From NCBI GenBank assembly GCA_046882065.1, contig JBKSMY010000006.1, forward strand, positions 5,800-69,799: DNA of 64,000 nucleotides, written 5' to 3'. Shown in pieces: positions 11,955-26,181 of this stretch. The stretch is from Alphaproteobacteria bacterium. Lineage in GTDB: Bacteria; Pseudomonadota; Alphaproteobacteria; Rs-D84. Each line of letters starts with the position of its first letter. Positions within the stretch are counted from its first letter, which is position 1. Both the position numbers and the translations under genes were made by a program. The notes under the pieces are model-generated. The model saw nothing but the letters and a program-made list of their open reading frames with translations. It was not told the DNA's origin and did no database searches.

Positions 11955-11980
11955 AAACCGGGTTTCCCCGGTTTTTTTAT
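11955..11980. terminator. bidirectional terminator (aaaaccgggtttccccggttttttt)
   Basis: Hairpin between convergent genes ending at 11954 and 11977. Confidence 0.55.
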
Positions 11981-12477
11981 ATGGCGGATTGACCATAAAC
12001 AATCCAATACATATTATGTGAACCAGTTAAATAGGCCTGGATTACCAATGTGGTTGTTGTGCTGCTGTCTGATTTGACGACACCACTGTATGCGCCGGCG
12101 TTGCCTTCGCGACCCACCCATGAAAACCCGCACCAGTATTGATTATTCGCCATTTGTACTGGTAATGAAATGCTGCGTGTTTCACTTGTTAGTTCGTCCA
12201 ACTTTAATCGTCCGCCCATTTCAACCCAGCCACTTTTATATTTCCGGTACCAGGTGTAGTTATTGTCTGCCGTTGGCGTTTGCCAGGCGATGACATAATC
12301 GTATGGGGTCAAATCTGGAATTTCGCTTTGTTTCGCAAGTGTCGTGCCACCGGGTGTTTGCCCGTCGTGGACACGCAAAGTGTTTGCAGTTGTGTCAACC
12401 GTGATTTCACCGGGTGCGCCGGTAAATGTTTCATGTTCGGCCGACGTGCCGCGTCTGAATTGTATCTGTCGTGACAT
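11977..12477 (-). CDS. phage tail-fibre-like protein (conserved tail-fibre N-terminal domain), short
   Basis: MSRQIQFRRGTSAEHETFTGAPGEITVDTTANTLRVHDGQTPGG matches the widespread caudoviral tail-fibre/Mtd-N type N-terminal motif (QxRRGT..GE..D..T..L.VxDG.T.GG). Confidence 0.5.
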   Translation of the reverse strand: MSRQIQFRRGTSAEHETFTGAPGEITVDTTANTLRVHDGQTPGGTTLAKQSEIPDLTPYDYVIAWQTPTADNNYTWYRKYKSGWVEMGGRLKLDELTSETRSISLPVQMANNQYWCGFSWVGREGNAGAYSGVVKSDSSTTTTLVIQAYLTGSHNMYWIVYGQSAI

Positions 12478-12517
12478 TTTTATTCCTTTTTGAGTTTTTT
12501 TTTATACTGGTTAATGT

Positions 12518-12814
12518 ATGAAAAAAATTTTAATTATTTTTTATTGTTTTTTTACACCATTCTTGGCAATGGCTGTATTGCCAGTTGTAAAAACGAATAT
12601 CGAAATTCCGTATAGAATCGCTGTTGATTCCAGCGCAATTTCCAGCATCGGCTTCAAAGACAATGTTTTGGAAATCGAATTTAATTCTGGAAATACATAT
12701 CAATATAATGGTGTTGCCAAGGATACTTTTGAATTTTTTTTAAATTCTGAATCCAAAGGACAGTTTTTTAATCGTTATATCAAAGGTAACTATGATGTTA
12801 TTCGCATTAAATAG
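12518..12814 (+). CDS. KTSC-domain protein with signal peptide
   Basis: The signal peptide is MKKILIIFYCFFTPFLAMA. The KTSC-like core is SSAISSIGFKDNVLEIEFNSGNTYQYNGV..F..FLNSESKGQFFNRYIKG. Confidence 0.5.
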   Translation: MKKILIIFYCFFTPFLAMAVLPVVKTNIEIPYRIAVDSSAISSIGFKDNVLEIEFNSGNTYQYNGVAKDTFEFFLNSESKGQFFNRYIKGNYDVIRIK

Positions 12815-13278
12815 TTCCAATTTTTCATAACATACGTTCTGATGCCATAACCAGGATTATATTTTGGGTATAATTTTTGAAAATCTGCGCTGGCACAATA
12901 TATATCGTCTGATGATATCGCGCCAATTTGCGCCAGATACACCATCGCAATCGACGGAGAACGTGACACACCACAATCACAATGAATTAAAACAGGCATC
13001 GTTTCAATATGTGCAATAATAAACTTAATCGCAGCATCAAATATCGGATTGGTATAAGCCGGGTTAAATTCACATGGCATATCAACCAAATTTAAATATA
13101 GATTTTTTCCATGTTTATAGACTAAATAATCTGGATTGTCGCTACACAGACTGCCTTGGTACCCTAAAACGCGGCGATGACATGTTTTACACGCATGAAT
13201 TATTGCGATATTATCGTGACGATATGACATGCAATCATGCATATCACCGACATACAGGTTATTGTATACTTGTATCAT
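12790..13278 (-). CDS. dual-specificity / Cys-based protein phosphatase (CX5R active site)
   Basis: VLIHCDCGVSRSPSIAMVYL contains the HCxxGxxRS P-loop of DSP/PTP phosphatases. Its 3' end overlaps the convergent KTSC gene by 25 bp. Confidence 0.6.
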   Translation of the reverse strand: MIQVYNNLYVGDMHDCMSYRHDNIAIIHACKTCHRRVLGYQGSLCSDNPDYLVYKHGKNLYLNLVDMPCEFNPAYTNPIFDAAIKFIIAHIETMPVLIHCDCGVSRSPSIAMVYLAQIGAISSDDIYCASADFQKLYPKYNPGYGIRTYVMKNWNYLMRITS

Positions 13279-13288
13279 ATTACATCCA

Positions 13289-13525
13289 TTATTTTATAAC
13301 AGCCCCCTTAATCAGGGTCAGGTCTTCTTTGATATCGTCAATTTTAATCTGAATTTGACCAATGCCCGTTTCCAAAATCGTCGTGCGATTTTCAAGTGAT
13401 GTTATCCGGGTATCAAATGTTTCGTGTTCCGCAACAGATAAGTCTTGGCGGGCAGCCCAATAGACCAACCCACCAATGAACATTATCAAAAACCAACTGT
13501 TGCGCAGAAAGTCCAATGACATCAT
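13289..13525 (-). CDS. small membrane-anchored coiled-coil protein (phage accessory; spanin/holin-like?)
   Basis: N-terminal TM segment (WFLIMFIGGLVYWAA) followed by a helical repeat-like C-terminus. Confidence 0.3.
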   Translation of the reverse strand: MMSLDFLRNSWFLIMFIGGLVYWAARQDLSVAEHETFDTRITSLENRTTILETGIGQIQIKIDDIKEDLTLIKGAVIK

Positions 13526-13725
13526 GATTTGTCCCCCCTGCCCCGCACGATTTGTGATTCTATTTGGCGCACTAAGGCGCGTTGGGATTCAGCCCAGCGC
13601 AATTCCCCGTCCGATGCGTTCGCCCCTAGTGTGCGTTCAATCGTAATCTTGCGCAAATGATCCAAGACCGCACGACCGGACGGTGTGCCAAAACAACGCG
13701 CGTAGTTTAATGATATATCCGTCAT
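13522..13725 (-). CDS. hypothetical phage protein (67 aa)
   Basis: ORF translationally coupled (overlapping stop/start) with flanking phage genes. Confidence 0.3.
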   Translation of the reverse strand: MTDISLNYARCFGTPSGRAVLDHLRKITIERTLGANASDGELRWAESQRALVRQIESQIVRGRGDKS

Positions 13726-14957
13726 AGTTGCCCCCCAAGAACTGTTTCCAATGCCGTCATCTGGGCAATCGGCGCAATGTATTTTAGTTCTGCGTCCCCG
13801 TTCAGACGAATTGGTTCAATCAGCCCACGACGCGCCAATATCTGTAATCCACGGTCGCACAAGGGGCGTATAAATTCATGTAGCAAACGTCCATAGGTTG
13901 CGCCCAAAATACGCATCATATCGGCATTGCGCGCCATAATTTCTGTGGCGGTCATTTCTTTTTCAGACAACAACCCCAGTCGGTCCGCCAACAACGCATG
14001 ACGGATACGTTCGCGCAAATCGCGCAATATCAGTTGCGATACATCAAAGTTCGCACCACTGGTCAATGGGGTCAGACCAGATGAACCAACAGCCTTGGGT
14101 ATAATTGCGCCAGGGGTCAAGTTTATGTTCTGCAGATTGATTACGCCGTCGTCGTCCGCCATCCATATACCAGACACAGCAATTGTTGCATTTTTCAAGA
14201 CCAGTTCAACAACCTTGTTCGCGGTTTTAATGTCTGGCAATGCACGCAGGACCGGACCACGACCGTACAATTCACCAGATGATACCGCCCAGCGGAATAT
14301 AATGTATGGATTCGTTTCAAATGTACCCGTGGAAACAATGTTGTTTTCAATATCACCACCAACGTCCAGCCACGCAACAAAATCCGTTCCAACCAGGCTT
14401 TGTACCAATTTTAACGGGGTTTCAGGGTCGCGCTTTATCGTATCGCGCAGGTTTGCCGGCGGTGTCCATGTTGGGTATTTTTCCAGGACTTCGCGTGCAG
14501 ACATAGATGTTGTGTGGAATACTGCGTTTGGCAATATCGCAATATCTGTCATTGGAATGGCTGTAAATGTAAATGCAGATGATGCACCAATCGGCGATTC
14601 TGACATGAACAAACACGCCGTCCCCAGCACCACTAAGTCCATATAACACTGGTGGATTGTCGTATAAAAATTCGAGTCATTCAAATTCGCACGCAGGACA
14701 GTCGTCGCATAGTCTGCGTTCTGGGACAAATCACTTTCGCCCACCAATTGCAACCACATTGATTCCGGCGGTGTCAACAACGTGTAAATCGATGCCGCCA
14801 GATTGTCTGATGCGTCCATGGCGGTGGCGTCAAACAATGTTGCCGCATCGTCGTCGGCCGTCGGCATGGCATAGCGACGCGCCGCGTCCCAACGCGCAAC
14901 CCAAGGCGCACGCGTATCCAATGCACGTTTATAAAGGTTCTGTAAATTTTGATACAT
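13722..14957 (-). CDS. putative portal protein
   Basis: 411-aa ORF immediately downstream of the terminase-C fragment, which is the canonical TerL-portal order. The size fits; no motif-level proof. Confidence 0.35.
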   Translation of the reverse strand: MYQNLQNLYKRALDTRAPWVARWDAARRYAMPTADDDAATLFDATAMDASDNLAASIYTLLTPPESMWLQLVGESDLSQNADYATTVLRANLNDSNFYTTIHQCYMDLVVLGTACLFMSESPIGASSAFTFTAIPMTDIAILPNAVFHTTSMSAREVLEKYPTWTPPANLRDTIKRDPETPLKLVQSLVGTDFVAWLDVGGDIENNIVSTGTFETNPYIIFRWAVSSGELYGRGPVLRALPDIKTANKVVELVLKNATIAVSGIWMADDDGVINLQNINLTPGAIIPKAVGSSGLTPLTSGANFDVSQLILRDLRERIRHALLADRLGLLSEKEMTATEIMARNADMMRILGATYGRLLHEFIRPLCDRGLQILARRGLIEPIRLNGDAELKYIAPIAQMTALETVLGGQL

Positions 14958-14974: not shown

Positions 14975-15859
14975 TTATATCTTGAAATTTGTGTTGGCAG
15001 AAAAGGTTTTTATCGATGTGCCAATTGCACGCACGGGCGTTGGAGTGTCCGTTATCGCGCCCGCGACCGCGTCCAGGCCGTCATCGTGAATGCCGGTTGC
15101 CCCAATCGGAGACCAGCCTAACATTTCCGACAACAGCGGCGTGTTTTGAACACGCGTGTGTGCGTGCAGGCGACCCGTTGATAGCAACGGTTCAATAGCA
15201 TTCAAAATTCGGTCTGATTTTGGTTTATTGTTCTGGATTTTATTTACATATATGTTTGCACCTTGCTTGATTGCACAATCGCGCATAATTTCAGGCAACC
15301 CAACCCCCAGGCCATTTGTTTCGATTGTTATGCGACGCAGTCCACGCGCAGACATAAATTCCAACACCATATCGCATTGGCGCGACAATGGGAACAGTTC
15401 ATCATCAGATACGGTCAGGTATAAAATATCGTGGATAAACACACGGCGCGAATTATCATCACGATACAGCAATACACAGGTACTGCCGTCGCGATGACGA
15501 CGGCCAGTCGCCGGATCCCAATATAATGTCATGCCTGTGATATGAAATTCATCAATCCGTGCAAAACGTGGGTCAAATTCAGTTTCATAAAATTTTAGTC
15601 CCCCCGGGTCCAGGCGGGCGCGTTCAAGCGGTGTGCATTCCAACATCATCTGGGACGAGAAGTGGCGCATACCAACTGTTTCGCGCAATTGTTCTATTCT
15701 TGAAAGCGGGAATAATTCGGGCCACGCGGGCGTCCCATCTGCGTTAACTATCGGAATTTTCAGCAATTTATACCCATGTAAAAAAGGCGTTGAAAAAGCA
15801 TTTTTTTCATATACTATGGGCATAGAAGAAAAGGAATTTGACATGGATTTTACCCCCAA
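14975..15859 (-). pseudogene. terminase large subunit, C-terminal nuclease-domain fragment
   Basis: LYWDPATG .. FIHDI .. IHDDGLDAVAGA are the RNaseH-like TerL nuclease motifs. There is no ATPase domain. The ORF opens with TTG and has no RBS. Its first ATG (CAT 15842-15844) overlaps the divergent dnaB ATG (15843). Confidence 0.6.
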
Positions 15860-17408
15860 AACATTACCAACAAATCTGGAAGCAGAACAGGCAGTATTGG
15901 CTGCGGTACTGATGAATAATCGTGCGTTGGAACGTGTGGGCGAATTCCTGAATTACAAGCATTTTTCACATCCTGCACACCAGGAAATTTATAAACTGGC
16001 CGAAAAGCAATTTGCCGCAGGTATTCCATTCGATATTATTACCGCAAAAAATTATCTGGACCAACAGGGCGTTCTGGAATCTGTTGGTGGCGTGGACTAT
16101 TTAAGCCAATTAACCAGCGCCGGCGCGACCGTCGTTAATGTTGAACAATATGGACGCATCGTTTATGAACATGCGTTGCGTCGTGATTTAATCGCCCTGG
16201 CCCAGGATATTACAGACAAGGCTTTTGTCGAAGATTTAGACAATCCGGTCGCGCGCCAGATTGAAATCGCAGAACAAAAGTTGTTCGATATGGCAACAAC
16301 AGGGACGTCTGAACGCGAACTGACTTCTATTTCAAGCGCGTTGCAAAGCGCCCTGGCTGAGGCAGAAATCGCATACAAAGCCGATGGTCAGTTATCCGGT
16401 CTGACGACGGGATTGAACGCATTGGATAAATCAATTAGTGGGCTGCATCATTCAGATCTGATTATTATCGCAGGACGTCCCGCGATGGGGAAAACCACAC
16501 TGGCAATGAATATCGCGTTCAATGCCGCCCAGGCAATTGCATTTGGTCGCGCAAACCAAAATTACAAGGGCGCAGTTGTGTTTTTCAGCCTTGAAATGTC
16601 GGCGTCCCAGTTGGCGGCGCGTGTGCTGTCATCGCAATCCAAGATTCCTGCAACCGCCATGCGTGAAGGAACACTGACGGATGAAGACTTTCTGAAAATG
16701 TCACAATATTCAGCCGCCATCGGACAGGTGCCGTTATTCATTGATGACACCCCGGGTATGAGTGTGCCAATGATGCGTACGCGTGCACGGCGTCTGGCGC
16801 GTAAACACGGTGGAATCGCGTTGATTGTTATCGACTATCTGCAGTTGATGACATCCCCCGGTGGCAAGCATAGTGACAATCGTGTTCAGGAAATTTCTGA
16901 AATTACACGAGGGCTGAAAATGCTGGCCAAGGAATTAGATGTCCCAGTTATCGCCCTGTCCCAGTTGTCGCGTAGCGTGGAATCGCGCGATGACAAACGA
17001 CCAATGCTGTCCGATTTGCGTGAATCTGGTTCTATTGAACAGGACGCGGACATTGTTATGTTCACATACCGCGAAGAATACTATTTGCAAAATCGTGACC
17101 CGTCTGACCGCATATCGAATAATGTTAATGATAAAATGCATGAATCATGGCAGAGCAGAATGGAACGCGCACGCGGCAAAGCAGATATTATCATCGGCAA
17201 AAACCGTCATGGTCGCCCTGAAACTGTACGCACAGCGTTCTTTGGCGATTACAGTCTGTTCGACAACCTGGACGAATTTGAGGCGCGTGGTGAAAATGAT
17301 TTTGCACAACCTGCACCAACAATTACAGCAGCACAACTGGCAAATGATGTGGATTCTATGCCGACTGCGATTGATCCAGACGCAATTCCAGACGACATGC
17401 CGTTGTAA
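15843..17408 (+). CDS. dnaB: DnaB-family replicative DNA helicase
   Basis: N-terminus LPTNLEAEQAVLAAVLMNN. Walker A is GRPAMGKTTLAMNIAFNAA. Walker B/H4 are IDYLQLM and SQLSRSVE. There is an unusual ~45-aa acidic C-terminal tail. The upstream in-frame extension from 15633 is judged non-coding. Confidence 0.8.
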   Translation: MDFTPKTLPTNLEAEQAVLAAVLMNNRALERVGEFLNYKHFSHPAHQEIYKLAEKQFAAGIPFDIITAKNYLDQQGVLESVGGVDYLSQLTSAGATVVNVEQYGRIVYEHALRRDLIALAQDITDKAFVEDLDNPVARQIEIAEQKLFDMATTGTSERELTSISSALQSALAEAEIAYKADGQLSGLTTGLNALDKSISGLHHSDLIIIAGRPAMGKTTLAMNIAFNAAQAIAFGRANQNYKGAVVFFSLEMSASQLAARVLSSQSKIPATAMREGTLTDEDFLKMSQYSAAIGQVPLFIDDTPGMSVPMMRTRARRLARKHGGIALIVIDYLQLMTSPGGKHSDNRVQEISEITRGLKMLAKELDVPVIALSQLSRSVESRDDKRPMLSDLRESGSIEQDADIVMFTYREEYYLQNRDPSDRISNNVNDKMHESWQSRMERARGKADIIIGKNRHGRPETVRTAFFGDYSLFDNLDEFEARGENDFAQPAPTITAAQLANDVDSMPTAIDPDAIPDDMPL

Positions 17409-17441
17409 TTTATAATTATTTGCTTGCGCAGGGAACAAAAA

Positions 17442-17460
17442 TTGACTATTATTTTGTCAA
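17442..17460 (+). promoter_or_regulatory. inverted repeat TTGAC-N9-GTCAA overlapping a -35-like TTGACT, upstream of repressor gene; candidate operator
   Basis: Palindrome seen directly; RBS aggag and ATG 17486 lie downstream. Confidence 0.3.
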
Positions 17461-17485
17461 GTATTAGTCATTTAGGAGTTTGCCC

Positions 17486-18493
17486 ATGGCCCAAGAAGAA
17501 ATTATATTTCCAAATAATATCCGCAACATTCGTTTGGCTAACGGTATGAAGATGACCGAACTGGCGCGTCGCGCAGGTTTATCTTTGTCTGCTGTTTCCA
17601 AGATTGAAAAAGGTGTTCGCCGACTGAACCAAAAACAGTTGTTGAATATTTGTAATATCCTGGGCTGTAAACTGTCCGATATTTTCATCAAAGAATCCGA
17701 TGATGTCGCAGACCAATGGCAAAGCGAAATCAAACGCCGTATGTCAGACAATGAAAACAGCGGTCTGAAAGTGTTCGGCAGCGGTCTGCGCAAGATTCGC
17801 CAGCAACGCGGAAAAACAATCGCACAGGCAGCAAAAGACGCCGGCATGACATTGTCTGTTTATCATAAAATCGAAGTCGGACAACGTGAAATCTATCAAA
17901 ATGAAATCGAACCATTGGCGCGTTCTTTTGCATTGGGTGCCGAAGAATTGTTCGATAAAATCGCAAGCCTGTATAAATCTGGCGAGTTGAACAAGCACAT
18001 CAGCAAAGTTAAAGAACGTGTAAAATCCGTTCTGATACCGGGCAATCCAATATCTGGTATGGACATGCACGGCGGTTTGTATGGCGCAAAATTGTATGAC
18101 AGCGCACGCAAAAAACTGGTTCCTGTGTTCGGCACACCCGCTGGCAAAGGAATCTCATTTAAAAAATCTGACAAAACAATGATTGTCGCCCCAATGACAT
18201 TAGAAGGACGCGCCGGCATCTATGCCGTTGCACCAAATTCTAAACGTTTGGGTGGTTTTGTGCCTGAAAATTCATATGTGTTTGCGGATTCCATGACCCC
18301 AGCACAGCCAGGCGATTTAGCAGTCGCAATTGATGTGGACTTTGACACATTGGATGGCGATACAACTGTTAATGCACAAATCGTTAGTGTGCGTCAGGAT
18401 TCCAAAGGCAGAGTTTATGGTCAGATGTCTTCACCAGATGAAAAATTGACAGCACAAACTATGCACAAGGTCGTTATGATTGTTATGGAATAA
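17486..18493 (+). CDS. CI/LexA-like repressor: two XRE-type HTH domains plus C-terminal S24-peptidase-like domain
   Basis: Two HTH_XRE-like segments (TELARRAGLSLSAVSKIEKG; IAQAAKDAGMTLSVYHKIEVG). C-terminal FADSMTPAQPGDLAVAIDVD resembles the GDSM..PGDLVVVD autocleavage module. Start moved to the ATG 7 nt after aggag. Confidence 0.6.
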   Translation: MAQEEIIFPNNIRNIRLANGMKMTELARRAGLSLSAVSKIEKGVRRLNQKQLLNICNILGCKLSDIFIKESDDVADQWQSEIKRRMSDNENSGLKVFGSGLRKIRQQRGKTIAQAAKDAGMTLSVYHKIEVGQREIYQNEIEPLARSFALGAEELFDKIASLYKSGELNKHISKVKERVKSVLIPGNPISGMDMHGGLYGAKLYDSARKKLVPVFGTPAGKGISFKKSDKTMIVAPMTLEGRAGIYAVAPNSKRLGGFVPENSYVFADSMTPAQPGDLAVAIDVDFDTLDGDTTVNAQIVSVRQDSKGRVYGQMSSPDEKLTAQTMHKVVMIVME

Positions 18494-18519
18494 TACAAAC
18501 ATACACGGAGAGAGAACCC

Positions 18520-19161
18520 ATGAACGTCAAAACCAGCGCAATCGCATTGAAATTATTAAACCTGTACCGCCAAGAACATGTTATTATTGGTGGCTGGACG
18601 ACTGTTAATCCGATTTTTTTAGCCGAGGCAACTGATGAAGTAATTAAAGAGTTGCGCACAATCCCCACAGGTAAATTATTGGTGCAACATATTGAAAATC
18701 TGCGCAGCGGCAAGACAGCCATGGACACCATAGATTCAGAATTGCTGCCATATGGCGGAATGATGACCGCAGAAGACATAGCAACAATTAAACTGACACC
18801 ATATCAATGGCGCGAACTGGAAGAAGGATTACGCAACTTTACACCAGATCAGGCAGGACTGGACAAATTTATGTCAATGGATGTTGTGCGCGAATTTGGC
18901 GAAGAATGGCAGAATTCTATTCGTTCCACTTTGAACGCACGACCACAATTGTTGGACAAATGGCGCACTGTTAAGCAAACCTATAATGCGTACAGACTGT
19001 GGGATATGGCGAATGAAATTATAGCCGCTCCGATATCCGAACGTAATCGCGCCCAGGTACAGGCCGATATGCCGGAATATGAAACATATTTACCTATGTT
19101 TGGCGACGCAGGTGCAGAATTGTTGACTAAATTACGCACATTTATCAGCAATATTGATTAA
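18520..19161 (+). CDS. hypothetical protein (213 aa)
   Basis: ORF with RBS; its stop overlaps the stop of the terminase-N fragment (convergent). Confidence 0.4.
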   Translation: MNVKTSAIALKLLNLYRQEHVIIGGWTTVNPIFLAEATDEVIKELRTIPTGKLLVQHIENLRSGKTAMDTIDSELLPYGGMMTAEDIATIKLTPYQWRELEEGLRNFTPDQAGLDKFMSMDVVREFGEEWQNSIRSTLNARPQLLDKWRTVKQTYNAYRLWDMANEIIAAPISERNRAQVQADMPEYETYLPMFGDAGAELLTKLRTFISNID

Positions 19162-19793
19162 TTGTTGCGGTATATTGTGTCGTGCGTATGTGGCGTTCCG
19201 ATGTAAATCATTGCCCCATTCGGCGAAAGGATAAAATCTAATTCGCGCAGTCTTTCACGCATTTGTTCCCGTTTCTGCGGGGTGTTTGATGTGTTGGGAA
19301 CTTCGACATCGTCACAAATAATTAGGTCTGCGCGCAATCCTGTAATGTTGCCATGCAAGCCTTGGCAGATGACGGAAGGTTCGCGGATGCCAATTGGTCG
19401 ATTAACCGTTATGCGTGCTGATGCCCATTCTTTTTTATTTTGCGGCACCAAATGGGCGCACCACGGATGATTTTCTAGTATATGCCGAATGTGTGATACC
19501 ATACGCGACGACAGCCCGGATTCCGCAGATAATATCAGTATTCTTGTTTGTGGACGCAGATACAATACACAGGCAACAAAAACACCAACAACTGTTGATT
19601 TGCCAGAATGTCGAAACGCCATCAACAGCCCACGATGTGGCGCATCACACAAAACATCATATAAAAATTCCATAATTTTGCGATGATGCGTTGGCGTCTG
19701 CAACCCCAAGACCCGATTCCATTCATCTAAGAAACTATAAAATTCCGTAATCATCGCGGTTTTCATTCGGGGCAGGTTCTGAAATAAAGCCAT
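19158..19793 (-). pseudogene. terminase large subunit, N-terminal ATPase-domain fragment
   Basis: Walker A is AFRHSGKST and Walker B is LIICDDVE, with a downstream GTP coupling-like motif. It ends after 211 aa with no nuclease domain. Confidence 0.65.
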
Positions 19794-20286
19794 AATCGTT
19801 TATCAATTTAGGCAATGCATTTTCCAGCACCCCAACCAAATTACGATACACCCCCAATACTGCGCCACCGCCCAGTTTATCGCGAATAACGTCATGCGTG
19901 TAATTTATCAACGATTTAACATCATTGTGGATGTTCGCCCATTCAACCAAGTCTGTGTTCACAGAATGTAAATCTTGAAATGCAGACAACAGAAAGTTAA
20001 AATCTGTGTTCAAATCTTCTGGGTCTATTCTGCGAGTTGGTTGATAGTCAATGGTGCGCGATAATGATATTTGTCGAAAAATGTCCAGTTTTGTATCCGC
20101 AGGTGGCGCAACATCAAAAACAACGTTGCCACCAGAAAAATCTTCGTTTGGTAGAACGGCATAATTAAATGCGCCATCCCCTATAACATCATTTATGGCA
20201 ACGCGCACATCTGCGGTCTGAAAAAAAGGAAACACAAACGCAAATTCCGTTGTCAGGCCGTCTGCAATATAAGATATTTTATACAT
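19735..20286 (-). CDS. phage structural/accessory protein, hypothetical (183 aa)
   Basis: ORF in the co-directional phage gene string. Confidence 0.35.
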   Translation of the reverse strand: MYKISYIADGLTTEFAFVFPFFQTADVRVAINDVIGDGAFNYAVLPNEDFSGGNVVFDVAPPADTKLDIFRQISLSRTIDYQPTRRIDPEDLNTDFNFLLSAFQDLHSVNTDLVEWANIHNDVKSLINYTHDVIRDKLGGGAVLGVYRNLVGVLENALPKLINDYGFISEPAPNENRDDYGIL

Positions 20287-20306: not shown

Positions 20307-20654
20307 TTAGCCAACCAGGTCATCAAATCTGGACAGCAAAGATTTCAATAAATTTGGTTTCTTGGCGCGTGCATTTTTTAACTTGGTCATATTATTGCGA
20401 CGCTTTTCTTCGTATGGTGCAGACGTTTCCGATTTCAGGCGTTTCAAAACTGCGCCTTCGGTCACGCCGTTTGTGCGCATGCCAGACGCACCATATTTTG
20501 CGCGCTGGGCCGCCAACGCTTTTTTCACCAGGTTTGTTTTTTCTGCTTCGTCCGCAGCCATCTGTGCGATTATTTCTTGGCGTTGATTTTTTGCCGCCTT
20601 TTTAGCGTCTTTGTAATCCAAGATTTCCGTTATATCTGATACAACTTGTCCCAT
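20307..20654 (-). CDS. basic helical phage protein (115 aa); small-terminase or internal protein candidate
   Basis: Lys/Arg-rich composition; position just upstream of TerL. Confidence 0.3.
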   Translation of the reverse strand: MGQVVSDITEILDYKDAKKAAKNQRQEIIAQMAADEAEKTNLVKKALAAQRAKYGASGMRTNGVTEGAVLKRLKSETSAPYEEKRRNNMTKLKNARAKKPNLLKSLLSRFDDLVG

Positions 20655-20681: not shown

Positions 20682-22412
20682 TTAAACCGAGTACCAACCG
20701 TGCAAACTGACAGAAAGTACTGTTGTTGGATAATTTTCGTTGCCGTGCACCGTCCATGCGGGCGTCATACAATCTGTTGTTGTGCCTAATAGATTTATTG
20801 AAACGTCGCCGCTGAATCCAGGACTGGTCGCGGCATATATTTCATTTGGCAAACTAATCTGGAGATTGTTTATTGATATGGATTTAGTATCCAGAACACG
20901 CGCTGTAATCTTGCGCAGGCGCAGACGTGTCGCGTTATGCCCAGATGCGCGTAATGGCATGCCAGATGCCTGAAAAGAAAAACTGTATTTATCTGCATCC
21001 ATCATTGCACCTGCATCAAATCGTTCAAGATAAAACCCATCTTCGCGATGCGTCGCAACATATGTGCGTCCGTCACAGACAGCAACCGATATAAACTGGC
21101 CGCGTGTTTTATATTGCCCCCAGGCAGAAATCCCCAGCGCTGCATTCTGATTTAATACAGCCATCGTGCCGTCAGCCAGTACAACAAACAGCCGACGCGC
21201 TGTATCATTATATGCGATATCTATCGGATTGGTCAGCAGATGCTTGGACAATGCGCATAGGTCATTTGCATTGTAATTTTCACCTAACTCGTCCAATGCT
21301 AATTCGCGAATATCACGACCAGACGCAGATACGAATATGGTCGCACCTTCGATTTTCTGGGGCGGTAAATAACGCACAACATACGAACCAACCGATGTAT
21401 GTTGTTTAATGTCAACAACAGATGGAGTTAGCGGTTTACTGGAAATCGCCCATTCACCAACATTGGTTAAGATTTGTAAAGTATCGCTGCTGACGACGGT
21501 ACAAATCTGTTGACGCTGGGCCGATAACAGAGATATAAATATGGCTTCGTCATCCAGACCCGTGCCAGCATCAAAGTTATTGTGTTGCCCCACGCGTGAC
21601 AACCATATTCCAGCCGGCCATGAACGCGATCCACCGAACACCAAGCGATCCTGGTGAAAGGTGATGCTGCGTGGCCAACCACGACGCGCACCAAACGCAC
21701 ATTCATGCCAATCTGATATGGCGGAATCAGGCAAAGTATAGGTGCCATTTGTGTGTACGACAACCTGGGTTGGACTGATATATTCTATGATTTGCCATTG
21801 GCGATTTAACAAGCGCAAACGACCGCCAACATTTTCAGGTGTCCAAAAATCTGCATTCGTGGTAAATGTTGCATAATTGTTGCCTGATGAATGGGCGCTG
21901 ACCGTTATTTTTATATTAGACGCATCGTCAAATTTTACAAACGGCATATTGACCGTCATATCTGCGTCGTTGCGCGAAAATTCGAATTCACGCAAATAAA
22001 ACCTATTGCCAGATTTGTATAATGTTTGTGGCTGATAATCAGCATGCACAAATATCATTGTGCCAAAACGCTGGGCATACTGTAAATGCGATGCGTCGTT
22101 GTATGACCAAGGTGTTTTTAGCGACTGGTAAAGTGTGTCGCCCAGATATATATCAATGTAAAAATCTGTTATTGCCAACAGATATTCTTCGTCATCAGAA
22201 ACAGAAAAAGGTATTAGGCGTGCTGGGCCTTTGAGTGCGCTGATACTGCGTAAACCTGAACGACGCGACAGGCCACCGCCCGCCAGGACATCCATGTTTT
22301 CCAATCGGGACAGACCGTCTATATTATCGTGCGCATAGAATTCTGGGGCAACCGCACCATTTGCAAATGAATTTTGTGTTTTGATAAAATCTGCCATGCG
22401 AAAATCCCCCAT
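20682..22412 (-). CDS. tail tubular protein B-like (T7 gp12-like), putative
   Basis: 576 aa directly after the gp11-like gene. Local resemblance to T7 gp12 (LAGGGLSRRSG vs LKGGISQQP; FGGSRSW vs FASPRSSF). Recollection-based. Confidence 0.4.
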   Translation of the reverse strand: MGDFRMADFIKTQNSFANGAVAPEFYAHDNIDGLSRLENMDVLAGGGLSRRSGLRSISALKGPARLIPFSVSDDEEYLLAITDFYIDIYLGDTLYQSLKTPWSYNDASHLQYAQRFGTMIFVHADYQPQTLYKSGNRFYLREFEFSRNDADMTVNMPFVKFDDASNIKITVSAHSSGNNYATFTTNADFWTPENVGGRLRLLNRQWQIIEYISPTQVVVHTNGTYTLPDSAISDWHECAFGARRGWPRSITFHQDRLVFGGSRSWPAGIWLSRVGQHNNFDAGTGLDDEAIFISLLSAQRQQICTVVSSDTLQILTNVGEWAISSKPLTPSVVDIKQHTSVGSYVVRYLPPQKIEGATIFVSASGRDIRELALDELGENYNANDLCALSKHLLTNPIDIAYNDTARRLFVVLADGTMAVLNQNAALGISAWGQYKTRGQFISVAVCDGRTYVATHREDGFYLERFDAGAMMDADKYSFSFQASGMPLRASGHNATRLRLRKITARVLDTKSISINNLQISLPNEIYAATSPGFSGDVSINLLGTTTDCMTPAWTVHGNENYPTTVLSVSLHGWYSV

Positions 22413-22931: not shown

Positions 22932-22960
22932 TTTTGCACCTTTGGTTAATAAAAATTTTA

Positions 22961-22980
22961 GGTCGGCAATTTTGCCGACC
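22961..22980 (-). terminator. hairpin ggtcggcaa-aatt-ttgccgacc followed by T-rich tract on minus strand (intra-operon attenuator/terminator)
   Basis: Perfect 9-bp stem between the 77-aa ORF and the gp11-like gene. Confidence 0.35.
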
Positions 22981-23007
22981 TGTAAGGGAAAGGAGAAAAA
23001 AAGTTTG

Positions 23008-24736: not shown

Positions 24737-25393
24737 TTATGAATATAATTTTTTAAAACCGTTTTCTATTTTTCGAATGTATTCTAGATCACCATCACGC
24801 CAATATTTTGGATCGCGCATCATGCGACGCAAATCAGAATCTGACAAAATTTCATTTTCATTTTTATCTGTTTTAACGTCAGGCTCCATCGATTGCATCA
24901 TCTTGTAAACGCTTTGGATTCCCTGGGGTGTAGCGCACAACGATTCAAATGCGTCCTGCGGCAAAAAGCGTTCGCCAAATGTATTTATCGCACGCAACGC
25001 ATCTAACATTTTTTCATCGCCACCAAAGAAATTTTTCAATTCATTCATCGCAGATACATCATCACGCGTTGCAAATAATTCTGAAATTACTGGTGATAAA
25101 AAATTGTTCGCAATATCATAAATTTTTTCAACTTGTGTTTTAGTCAAACCAATTTCAAGAAATTTTTGTCGCAGATTTTCATCATCATATAATTCATGAA
25201 CAGGATATTCAGATGCATCATCCGGAACACCAATTGCGCGATTAAATTTCTGACGCGCAGCGCTATCTGAATTTTCATTTGGAACAGACACCATCGTGCC
25301 AATCTTTTTTTCTAATTCATTATACGAACGCATCAACGCGTCTGTATTCAATGTTCCGTCATTATTACGAAATTTTTCTGGGATGTTATCCAT
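24737..25393 (-). CDS. acidic helical protein, scaffolding-protein candidate
   Basis: ~218 aa from internal Met MDNIPEKF (RBS aaggaa), rich in D/E and predicted helices, and located upstream of the capsid gene as in T7 gp9. The long upstream extension is judged non-coding. Confidence 0.3.
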   Translation of the reverse strand: MDNIPEKFRNNDGTLNTDALMRSYNELEKKIGTMVSVPNENSDSAARQKFNRAIGVPDDASEYPVHELYDDENLRQKFLEIGLTKTQVEKIYDIANNFLSPVISELFATRDDVSAMNELKNFFGGDEKMLDALRAINTFGERFLPQDAFESLCATPQGIQSVYKMMQSMEPDVKTDKNENEILSDSDLRRMMRDPKYWRDGDLEYIRKIENGFKKLYS

Positions 25394-25583
25394 TGTCTTT
25401 TCCTTTGGTTTCGTTTGAACGGCGCAGAAAATATATTCCCGCCAATGTAAATATTGCCTGCAACATTGTAAATAAATCTGTATCACCCACCAGGTATGCA
25501 CCAACAGCCGACAAGATACCCGTCGCAGAAATTATGTATGTTCGGTACCCAGACAGGTAGCCACCATGTATTATTCGTTTCAT
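25386..25583 (-). CDS. holin-like small membrane protein
   Basis: 65 aa with two hydrophobic segments and a charged C-terminus, immediately downstream of the lysin gene. Confidence 0.35.
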   Translation of the reverse strand: MKRIIHGGYLSGYRTYIISATGILSAVGAYLVGDTDLFTMLQAIFTLAGIYFLRRSNETKGKDNG

Positions 25584-25595
25584 AGAAATCGCCCA

Positions 25596-26012
25596 TCATA
25601 AATAGAACAATATGCCATCTATGTCTGCAATATATCCGCGCGATGTAGCCCATGCAGGGATTTCATCTGCATAATGAAATTTTGTTGCACCATAACAACT
25701 GTCAGGTAATTGCCCCATCAACATTCGATAGGCCGTACGAACACACATTTGAAACGCACGATTTTGAGCCGGCACATGCAAACGCACATGATTTACATCT
25801 GAATCCGATAATGCCGGAAATATAGTTTTATCACAAATCAAATTAGATATCGTAACACCTGATGCGTCTGATAAATTTTTTATCATTGATGTAAACGCAC
25901 ATACCAATGGCAATGAGACACCACCTGTTTGCGCATAAACAACGCGTGCAATTTTATATGCCATGTTTGTAGTACCAGACGTGTCTGGATTTTTTATCAA
26001 TGTCAGTTGCAT
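25596..26012 (-). CDS. cell-wall hydrolase, SleB-like (Hydrolase_2) phage endolysin
   Basis: IARVVYAQTGGVSLP resembles the SleB/Hydrolase_2 motif (ARVVYAEAxGE); the size is ~138 aa. Confidence 0.55.
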   Translation of the reverse strand: MQLTLIKNPDTSGTTNMAYKIARVVYAQTGGVSLPLVCAFTSMIKNLSDASGVTISNLICDKTIFPALSDSDVNHVRLHVPAQNRAFQMCVRTAYRMLMGQLPDSCYGATKFHYADEIPAWATSRGYIADIDGILFYL

Positions 26013-26181
26013 TTAATGGCCCTATTGTTAGAAAAATAAAACCCATGCAGAAAATGCATGGGAAATAAAAAACCACAACGCATGTTGTGGACAGAATCTG
26101 TGCTGTTTATGTGTTATATAATATCATAAATTCAAACAAAAGTCAAGACAATATTTTCAAACCCGCAGAAATCCGCGATTT

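Follow-up and report, generated by a model that had tools for sequence, protein, structure and literature searches.

A phage large terminase (TerL) is encoded by two separate genes in a 64,000-nucleotide stretch of an alphaproteobacterial contig (GenBank JBKSMY010000006.1; the whole stretch is hereafter the window), with a block of three genes that includes the helicase gene dnaB lying between its ATPase and nuclease halves. Comparative sequence analysis of metagenome-assembled genomes (MAGs) and metagenome contigs suggests that the locus is probably a domesticated, vertically inherited T7/BPP-1-like podovirus cluster of a gut and rumen clade of Alphaproteobacteria, similar to a gene transfer agent (GTA), in which TerL is produced as two polypeptides whose genes flank a host dnaB block. 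By these comparisons the split is old and kept by selection, and is not a broken gene, because the layout recurs across species and the ratios of non-synonymous to synonymous substitution (dN/dS) are low at near-saturated dS.

TerL is divided between two collinear genes

An earlier note on this DNA (the original prediction) had reported an ATPase-only and a nuclease-only open reading frame (ORF), at 19158..19793 and 14975..15859, on one strand in N-to-C order and together about 500 amino acids, with three plus-strand genes between them, among them a DnaB helicase and a gene for a 213-amino-acid protein. Our ORF check, Pfam, PHROG and NCBIfam searches and alignment to intact homologues bore all of this out, including the motifs of each half. 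The elements concerned are as follows.

19158..19793, minus strand: TerL-N, ATPase subunit of a T7-type large terminase, 211 amino acids (phrog_38, NF033889)
18520..19161, plus strand: unk213, clade-restricted all-helical protein whose stop overlaps that of TerL-N
17486..18493, plus strand: XRE-family regulator with two helix-turn-helix (HTH) domains and a beta-rich C-terminal domain (Pfam HTH_3 twice; AlphaFold2, Foldseek)
17442..17460, plus strand: palindrome TTGAC-N9-GTCAA in the dnaB–HTH spacer (alignment of eight species)
15843..17408, plus strand: dnaB, cellular-type replicative DNA helicase (PF00772, PF03796; NF006606)
14975..15844, minus strand: TerL-C, RNase H-like nuclease subunit of the large terminase, about 289 amino acids (phrog_38, PF22530, NF033889)

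Profile searches confirmed that TerL-N and TerL-C are collinear halves of one T7-type large terminase. TerL-N matched the 'terminase large subunit' family phrog_38 at profile positions 268-459 (E = 5e-40) and TerL-C matched it at positions 475-708 (E = 2.9e-30). In the 500-position NCBIfam model NF033889 (termin_lrg_T7), TerL-N covered positions 2-190 with 228 bits (cutoff 150) and TerL-C covered 331-500 with 91 bits, a score that by itself falls below the 150-bit family cutoff. Checking continuity against TerL profiles, as the original prediction had proposed, thus gave collinear segments of the same profile. Alignment with intact homologues of about 500 residues placed the break in the variable interdomain linker, after GTPHxxxxIY; no residues are missing at the break, and a few (IY/VY) may be duplicated. 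Both new termini fall within this linker, TerL-N ending in …GTPHTHDTIYRNN directly before its stop and TerL-C starting with MSN…IVYEKNAFSTPFLHGYKLLKIPIVN…, and the C-terminal tail of TerL-N varies in length among orthologues.

All orthologues keep the Walker A and B motifs (AFRHSGKST and LIICDDVEVPN), YWDPxxG, ETNG and HDDGLDAV, the acidic nuclease residues among them. A T7-type TerL is a single polypeptide; here, two ORFs 3.3 kb apart each have their own start and their own stop. The best matches among isolate phages were TerLs of T7-like podophages, at about 36% identity. The TerL-C frame does extend to a TTG at 15859, as first described, but its conserved start is the ATG at 15844. Nor does TerL-C lack a ribosome-binding site, as had been stated: an SD-like (Shine–Dalgarno) GGGGG or GGGAG stands 8 nt upstream of this ATG in all orthologues, and is at the same time the antisense of Thr-Pro codons of DnaB.

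The split is conserved across species and under purifying selection

At a threshold of E ≤ 1e-10 we found 838 homologues of TerL-N. The best 120 are all 198-221 amino acids long and 75-94% identical to it, on contigs of up to 857 kb that are labelled 'Alphaproteobacteria bacterium' where named. Four contigs with a TerL-N 81% identical to that of the window (L001-L004) match the window in gene order, in the three opposite-strand genes that separate the halves, and in their flanks, with a lipoate-protein ligase gene (LplA) on one side and glycosyltransferase genes on the other. A DnaB-based scan of GTDB species representatives, for which all figures refer to the best 80 loci, added nine species-level MAG loci (L005-L013) from deer, yak, goat, human-type and termite gut samples, with DnaB 71-94% identical. 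Seven of the nine (L005-L008, L010, L011 and L013) are collinear with the window as far as their contigs reach, and in these all genes are full-length even where TerL-C identity is down to 56-60%; the loci of L009 and L012 are rearranged. TerL thus occurs naturally in relatives as two genes that enclose this cargo, the finding that the original prediction had itself named as telling against an insertion.

We estimated dN/dS pairwise by the NG86 method; dS ran from about 1 to more than 2.5, near saturation, so the ratios are rough. The values were 0.05-0.06 for TerL-N and 0.06-0.14 for TerL-C, and no cluster gene exceeded 0.25; the flanking host gene LplA gave 0.09-0.15 at comparable dS (1.3-2.4). 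The portal gene, which travels with TerL-C, was the most constrained. These comparisons showed purifying selection on both TerL halves and on all structural genes. Of the two characters offered in the original prediction, defective or domesticated, the second therefore holds and the first is not supported, both halves being under strong purifying selection.

Loci ranked by identity fall in the same order for host and cluster genes, and our comparisons thus showed that the cluster co-diverges with the chromosome and is vertically inherited at a fixed locus. The fixed locus, the co-divergence with the host, and the lack of an integrase or attachment (att) site likewise leave without support the suggestion of a satellite-like element that targets the terminase. 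A near-identity DNA search of the 13-23 kb region against isolate phages gave no match, and a scan of viral contigs recovered two short fragments of the same element and nothing else.

Compact junctions and a candidate dnaB promoter within TerL-C codons

Both junctions are as sharp as first described, with almost zero intergenic DNA, and regulatory signals must therefore sit within coding sequence. At one of them a single CATG (15842-15845) supplies the ATG of both dnaB and TerL-C, an arrangement shared by 10 of 11 loci; the exception, L087, has its TerL-C ATG one codon further inside. At the other, the stops of TerL-N and unk213 overlap at 19158-19161, and this overlap takes the form YTAR in 8 of 11 loci even as the surrounding residues differ. 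We sought direct or inverted repeats, att sites and terminal inverted repeats at the junctions and found none.

Synonymous variation locates a candidate signal at the shared start. Across 10-11 orthologues, the fraction of same-residue pairs written with different codons was 0.53 over the whole of TerL-C and 0.06-0.27 in its first 35 or so codons. This low-variation stretch is the antisense of the dnaB start and of the 90-100 nt upstream of dnaB, and it holds a promoter-like element conserved in all orthologues:

15790..15817, plus strand: dnaB promoter-like TTGAAA-N16-TACTAT within TerL-C codons

The simplest reading of these patterns is that the promoter and leader of dnaB are written into the codons of TerL-C. 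Within this segment, the window, L010, L013, L087 and L088 share an 18-nt indel (window 15818-15842) that encodes SFSSMP in TerL-C and gives dnaB an AAGGA Shine–Dalgarno sequence in the window's subgroup. Species without the indel have the -10-like TACTAT just about 7 nt from the dnaB ATG, which implies a nearly leaderless dnaB mRNA. Synonymous variation is also low in codons 1-25 of TerL-N (0.12-0.26), because these overlap the fibre gene.

The block between the halves

The DnaB of the window scored 614 bits against the cellular equivalog NF006606 (cutoff 540) and 509 against TIGR00665 (cutoff 385), and stayed below the phage exception model TIGR03600 (phage_DnaB; 401 versus a cutoff of 499). 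Its identity was about 50% to DnaB of other gut alphaproteobacterial MAGs, 45-47% to those of Asticcacaulis, Paracoccus and Hyphomonas, and 40-43% to those of other phyla. The best named phage DnaB was 43% identical. An unannotated 17-kb contig from human faeces, filed as 'UNVERIFIED: Bacteriophage sp.' (MT835812.1), reached 49.5%; this value resembles the roughly 50% of chromosomal gut-alphaproteobacterial DnaBs, and the contig may be bacterial DNA filed as phage. In an outgroup MAG, dnaB stands among metK, trmB, a gene for an MFS transporter and rpmB, with no phage genes there. With a dN/dS of 0.02-0.05, dnaB is the most conserved gene of the block, and the window's copy is probably the host's replicative helicase gene.

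The regulator gene downstream has 820 homologues, and nearly all of the best 120 encode 335 amino acids (dN/dS 0.04-0.10). It had been called a CI-like repressor; its product is an XRE-type protein with a pair of HTH domains, and we could not place its beta-rich C-terminal domain in the S24/cI family. This domain has no Pfam S24 match, sequence matches in the Protein Data Bank (PDB) are confined to the HTH, and with the AlphaFold2 model, in which this domain has low confidence, Foldseek found weak full-length matches to lambda cI and to HTH–cupin proteins alike. A cI-like architecture is possible. The palindrome in the spacer ahead of the gene, perfect in the window and conserved in eight species with minor changes in the left arm, is a probable operator or promoter of the regulator gene. 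Its half-site resembles the -35 (TTGACT) of the head promoter of the surrounding cluster.

The third gene, unk213, has 1288 homologues, the best 120 of which are all exactly 213 amino acids and carry no functional name. The protein has no Pfam, PHROG or NCBIfam match, and its AlphaFold2 model (pLDDT 76) found nothing below E 0.7 in the PDB with Foldseek. Outside the clade, neither the HTH gene nor unk213 was ever seen beside dnaB.

Intact and divided TerLs outside the clade

Outside the clade, the nearest TerLs (50% clustering) are 44-55% identical over the ATPase domain. Most are intact, with lengths of 450-530 amino acids (about 480-510 in the nearest), and an uninterrupted TerL is therefore ancestral. 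In the closest of them (P0122, 55%), which comes from the gut dataset that also gave L001, the frame continues uninterrupted across the linker (…TIYDTTSEGFLRDF…), and another, from a sponge metagenome (P0123), has the usual order of TerL, a 194-amino-acid ORF, portal and scaffold. The comparison that the original prediction had called for thus found uninterrupted TerLs in the nearest outgroups and divided ones in all close relatives.

Among 50 representatives with both motifs, only one other protein (P0155) was a clean ATPase-only TerL. It occurs on two long chromosomal contigs, L091 (10001-11480) and L092 (10001-11441), where a separate TerL-C gene follows directly with nothing between the halves. 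TerL-N has 210 and TerL-C 284 or 271 amino acids, and the cut is in the same interdomain linker as in the window. The two genes overlap at ATGGGTGA with a GGAGGAG Shine–Dalgarno sequence before the TerL-C ATG, which indicates translational coupling of the halves. This TerL is no closer to that of the window (43-46% identity) than intact TerLs are (47-50%), and its split therefore probably arose independently. From these sequences, the pair shows that no insertion is needed for a T7-type TerL to occur as two polypeptides.

The pair lies in a small chromosomal island with no capsid or portal genes nearby. Its neighbours are variable and defence-like, an OLD-like TOPRIM/AAA_15 gene in L092 and Beta_protein and Peptidase_M78 genes in L091, and the pair may represent a satellite-like or an exapted terminase. 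Three short PHROG 'terminase large subunit' families (phrog_4758, phrog_17672 and phrog_5573) match the ATPase half alone (a 243-position profile) or the nuclease half alone (a 250-position profile), which suggests that half-length T7-type TerL ORFs are already present, unremarked, in sequenced phage genomes.

The surrounding cluster and its predicted transcription

The TerL genes belong to a compact minus-strand cluster of about 14 kb that spans 26.15 to 11.95 kb. In the order of transcription, and leaving a gap for the TerL genes and the block already given, its features are:

26118..26146, minus strand: head promoter TTGACT-N17-TATTAT with an extended -10 (TGATA), the best promoter-like site of the region
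26042..26090, minus strand: two tandem intrinsic-terminator hairpins in the leader between promoter and first gene, both with their T-tracts in seven species
25596..26012, minus strand: p138, probable cell-wall hydrolase (lysin); weak or faint PF07486 (Hydrolase_2) matches in the L001-L004 orthologues, no Pfam match in the window; dN/dS 0.11-0.25
25386..25583, minus strand: hydrophobic 65-amino-acid protein, putatively holin-like; a 74-amino-acid gene at the same place in L001-L004
24737..25393, minus strand: T7 gp9-like scaffold protein, read from Met38 of the ORF (PF05396, Phage_T7_Capsid); 218 amino acids in L001
24319..24624, minus strand: basic 101-amino-acid Lys/Ala/Pro-repeat protein between the scaffold and capsid genes; a 111-116-amino-acid gene at the same position in L001-L004
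23281..24102, minus strand: major capsid protein (PF19821, 6e-72; phrog_3437); dN/dS 0.02-0.05
22960..22981, minus strand: strong terminator hairpin 3' of the capsid gene; equivalent hairpin after the capsid gene in L005
22413..22931, minus strand: tail tubular protein A, gp11-like (PF17212, Tube; phrog_394)
20682..22412, minus strand: tail tubular protein B, gp12-like (phrog_376, 2.7e-82)
20307..20654, minus strand: p115, conserved basic coiled-coil protein; dN/dS 0.05-0.16
19735..20286, minus strand: fibN, tail-fibre N-terminal-domain protein (phrog_1640 and other tail-fibre families)
13722..14957, minus strand: portal, T7 gp8-type head–tail connector (PF12236, 1.6e-82); dN/dS 0.01-0.04
13522..13725, minus strand: conserved Bbp19-like protein of 67 amino acids (PF25181, Phage_Bbp19, on orthologues)
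13289..13525, minus strand: p78, conserved 78-amino-acid protein; dN/dS 0.04
12790..13278, minus strand: dual-specificity-phosphatase-like gene in a variable cargo slot (PF00782)
11977..12477, minus strand: tail or receptor-binding protein with an Mtd_N domain, last gene of the cluster (PF18454, phrog_9648); present in L001-L005 and L011
11953..11976, minus strand: terminator at the end of the cluster

A gene for a 77-amino-acid protein follows the major capsid gene, ahead of tail tubular protein A. The flanks are host genes, with glycosyltransferases, a polysaccharide deacetylase/radical-SAM protein and tRNA-Leu on one side and LplA, CorA and OmpA-family genes on the other. We found no integrase, polymerase or other phage replication genes in or beside the cluster; its lone replication gene is the cellular-type dnaB.

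Several of these genes have features of their own. The 101-amino-acid basic protein is made nearly entirely of KKAPAKKPAAKPVA-type Lys/Ala/Pro repeats, with a composition like that of histone H1, and may be a DNA-condensing or internal head protein. Three of the nine related species (L007, L008 and L010) lack fibN and have p115 directly next to TerL-N, so that the tail-fibre module varies; the constant receptor binder may be the Mtd_N protein. As a candidate for the small terminase subunit (TerS), p115 was rejected, having no similarity to the ORF upstream of an intact TerL in L085. The slot between p78 and the Mtd_N gene (window 12480-13290) holds the phosphatase-like gene and, on the opposite strand, a gene for a 98-amino-acid protein with a signal-peptide-like N terminus; elsewhere the same slot holds ORFs of 178 and 429 amino acids (L001, 16531-19088) or one of 660 amino acids (L003, 16532-19044).

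Promoter calls were limited to sites conserved across species, a generic sigma-70 scan having been at chance level overall (37 sites found versus 37.2 expected). The head promoter, in the spacer between LplA and the lysin gene, passes this filter: its TTGACT -35 is invariant and its -10 conserved in seven species, and the motif occurs once in the 64-kb window. The two leader terminators lie about 20 nt 3' of it, and their stems differ between species yet stay paired, with compensatory changes in 9 of 15 pairs. Further minus-strand terminators stand before and after the capsid gene in both the window and L005. Read from sequence, this succession of promoter, terminators, lysis genes and structural genes matches the organization of a late operon under antitermination control. 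We identified neither an antiterminator nor an activator for the cluster.

Between TerL-N and TerL-C we found no strong minus-strand terminator. TerL-C and the portal gene have no conserved promoter, the head-promoter motif has no second copy in the window, a minus-strand -10 in the dnaB–HTH spacer is not conserved among eight species, and synonymous variation is not suppressed at the 5' end of dnaB (0.45 versus 0.52), which gives no sign of a conserved antisense promoter for TerL-C there. Because no internal promoter or terminator was detected, we tentatively propose, at somewhat less than even chances, that TerL-C, portal and the downstream genes are reached by terminator-resistant late transcription running antisense through unk213, the HTH gene and dnaB. 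A more speculative and rather doubtful extension is a commitment switch, in which late antisense transcription towards the TerL-C, portal and receptor-binding genes would silence dnaB and the cluster regulator and so commit a doomed producer cell to making particles, with the ATPase and nuclease as separate motor subunits.

A packaging role weighed against alternatives

On our preferred interpretation, a domesticated GTA-like cluster, TerL-N and TerL-C would be translated separately and come together on the portal without a covalent link; alternatively, DNA might be translocated by the ATPase alone, as in phi29, with TerL-C acting as a separate headful cutter. The late minus-strand transcript would become terminator-resistant and cross unk213, the HTH gene and dnaB to reach TerL-C and the portal gene, and the cluster would make particles that package host DNA.

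Several observations weigh against this interpretation. GTA function, with particles packaging host DNA, is proposed from gene content and evolution. When T4 gp17 was split at its linker, the ATPase and nuclease activities were kept and DNA translocation was abolished (PMC3012670); that a split motor works can therefore not be taken for granted. Divergence has been faster in TerL-C than in TerL-N (30% versus 49% identity to the nearest intact TerL), and neither TerS nor T7 gp14-16-type internal core proteins were found in the cluster. The TerL-C promoter may instead be hidden within dnaB codons. That dnaB would be the host's sole replicative helicase depends for its sole-copy status on the best 80 loci, among which the nine (incomplete) MAGs yielded no second DnaB. 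Two rearranged relatives also separate TerL-C from its partners. In L012 (600-5700, a single MAG contig), TerL-C persists although the portal and tail genes and the greater part of both TerL-N and the capsid gene have been deleted, and in a termite-gut contig, L100 (3895-16242), no TerL-N or capsid gene was found within 10 kb upstream of the TerL-C half-cluster. From these two loci, TerL-C may possess, or have gained, a role that does not depend on TerL-N.

In L012, dnaB, the HTH gene and unk213 have persisted despite the loss of phage genes, with dnaB inverted. A 94-amino-acid ORF there fuses capsid residues 1-85 to TerL-N residues 182-209, and TerL-C is intact with all its catalytic motifs and starts right after the dnaB terminator hairpin. 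Deeper relatives on termite-gut metagenome contigs (L094-L102) have a half-cluster of TerL-C, portal, Bbp19 and p78 that always adjoins dnaB in variable arrangements, one of which has a 994-amino-acid ORF between TerL-C and portal. Some have a recG-like helicase gene between TerL-C and dnaB, and in others dnaB is co-directional with TerL-C; recG stands beside dnaB in L009 and L095, and in the deeper lineages with recG the HTH gene and unk213 are not adjacent to dnaB. L100 has a defence-like AAA_21 and RloB pair between dnaB and TerL-C and the host genes uppS-cdsA-rseP after p78. Our search for TerL-N in the termite-gut lineages returned contigs of less than 1 kb.

The strongest competing explanation is that the genes are conserved while the halves do not package jointly, TerL-C and perhaps others having been exapted for another cellular role without any DNA-transferring GTA. 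We regard this as improbable. The solitary TerL-C of L012, the half-cluster of L100, the faster evolution of TerL-C, the T4 result and the missing TerS all favour it, but all nine closest species keep their head, tail, lysis and packaging genes complete and together under strong constraint, which is hard to explain without particle assembly. Moreover, the most constrained gene, portal, is the one that travels with TerL-C, and GTAs are known to occupy more than one locus (PMC12946183).

A further reading, quite improbable, derives the block from the ancestral phage itself, as its module for replication and lysogeny (a repressor with a DnaB); the phage dnaB would then either persist alongside the host dnaB or stand in its place. 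A repressor-like HTH gene beside a helicase gene is typical of the early regions of temperate phages, the HTH gene and unk213 accompany dnaB in this clade only, and some phage DnaBs are 43-49% identical. Against this, the DnaB of the window scores above the cutoff of the alphaproteobacterial cellular equivalog and below that of the phage model, its identities follow taxonomy, its gene is the most conserved of the block and is kept when phage genes decay, and the host gene recG lies beside it in deeper lineages. That no second DnaB of the nine MAGs turned up among the best 80 loci points the same way, weakly.

Programmed excision of the skin/sigK or nifD type, in which the block would be cut out in particle-producing cells and an intact terL restored, is very improbable. 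Collinear halves on the same strand would suit it, and the loss of dnaB might be tolerable in producer cells that lyse anyway. However, the three block genes encode no recombinase domain (Pfam, PHROG and NCBIfam), the junctions have no direct or inverted repeats, TerL-C has its own conserved start with a Shine–Dalgarno sequence, and TerL-N has its own stop and a tail of varying length. Excision also accords poorly with relatives in which dnaB is inverted, recG or defence genes have been added or the halves lie more than 10 kb apart, and with the insert-free, working-looking two-gene TerL of L091.

The original prediction had favoured a foreign 3.3-kb segment that landed recently in terL and left a defective, decaying prophage. 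Its insertion-like topology, the intact TerLs of the nearest outgroups and the visible decay of L012 are what such an event would leave, but we consider it extremely improbable, since the same split and cargo occur in every close relative and on hundreds of contigs with junction geometry conserved to the nucleotide, the ORFs are intact at near-saturated dS with dN/dS of 0.05-0.14 for the halves, and the DnaB in the cargo is of cellular type.

Restoration by splicing, through a group I or II intron or a split or contiguous intein, is documented for a split terL in Jug phages, where a group I intron rejoins it (PMC12880540), but is hardly conceivable here: Rfam found two tRNAs and nothing else over the whole window, hence no intron or ribozyme, the intervening genes are on the opposite strand, alignment and NCBIfam revealed no intein blocks or extra sequence on either side of the break, TerL-N is all ATPase domain with no room for an N-intein, and the 20-30 N-terminal residues of TerL-C align to the intact linker without a C-intein HN/Cys-Ser-Thr junction.

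Comparison with known systems

Full-text literature searches found no description of this arrangement. If our interpretation is right, the locus would give the Alphaproteobacteria of gut and rumen a podovirus-like GTA candidate of T7/BPP-1 type, beyond the HK97-type siphovirus-like GTAs of that class, in a clade that is uncultured yet abundant in public metagenomes. An essential-type host gene, dnaB, with its candidate promoter in terminase codons and a four-base start shared with TerL-C, would also represent an unusually intimate entanglement of a virus with core replication, one that may stabilize the cluster or couple particle production to replication arrest.

Like RcGTA, CcGTA and BaGTA, the cluster is compact (about 10-15 kb), combines head, tail, packaging and lysis genes without integrase or replication genes, and is inherited vertically at a fixed locus under purifying selection. 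Its promoter and leader terminators fit the antitermination control documented for CcGTA and BaGTA (10.1101/2023.11.12.565669, 10.1101/2024.11.20.624540). Those GTAs are siphovirus-like and HK97-type or chimeric, with an intact TerL and no essential host gene inside, whereas the cluster in the window is of T7/BPP-1 podoviral type, with a two-gene TerL and a nested dnaB. FpGTA of Faecalibacterium prausnitzii, described as the first podovirus-like GTA-like element, has several features in common with it: it too belongs to gut bacteria, is probably podovirus-like and has an operon of about 10 kb with TerL, portal, scaffold and capsid genes, together with a second locus for other parts (PMC12946183). 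It differs in its host (Firmicutes), its intact TerL, the presence of TerS, experimental evidence from the DNA of virus-like particles and a non-homologous layout, and it has no nested host gene.

The TerL itself is of the T7 gp19 type found in T7-like and BPP-1-like podophages, with the same family, motifs and adjacency to a gp8-type portal, but theirs is a single polypeptide of about 500-590 amino acids and that of the window consists of about 200 and 289 amino acids encoded 3.3 kb apart. In Jug jumbo phages (PMC12880540), terL also lies in collinear fragments on one strand; those fragments are co-transcribed and rejoined by a group I intron or inteins, and their inserts carry homing endonucleases, whereas the window has opposite-strand cellular genes and separate translation signals for each half. 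The motor of phi29 gp16 translocates DNA without an active nuclease domain, its C-terminal domain being a vestigial nuclease (PMC7672431), and there the vestigial domain stays covalently attached, unlike TerL-C. In T4 gp17 the same linker bounds two functional domains and an artificial split loses translocation (PMC3012670), whereas here selection maintains the split. The L091/L092 pair shares the linker break and separate translation, but its genes are adjacent and coupled, with no capsid or portal genes nearby. Set beside these systems, the locus offers a natural system for asking whether covalent coupling of ATPase and nuclease is required or whether the nuclease is a detachable subunit.

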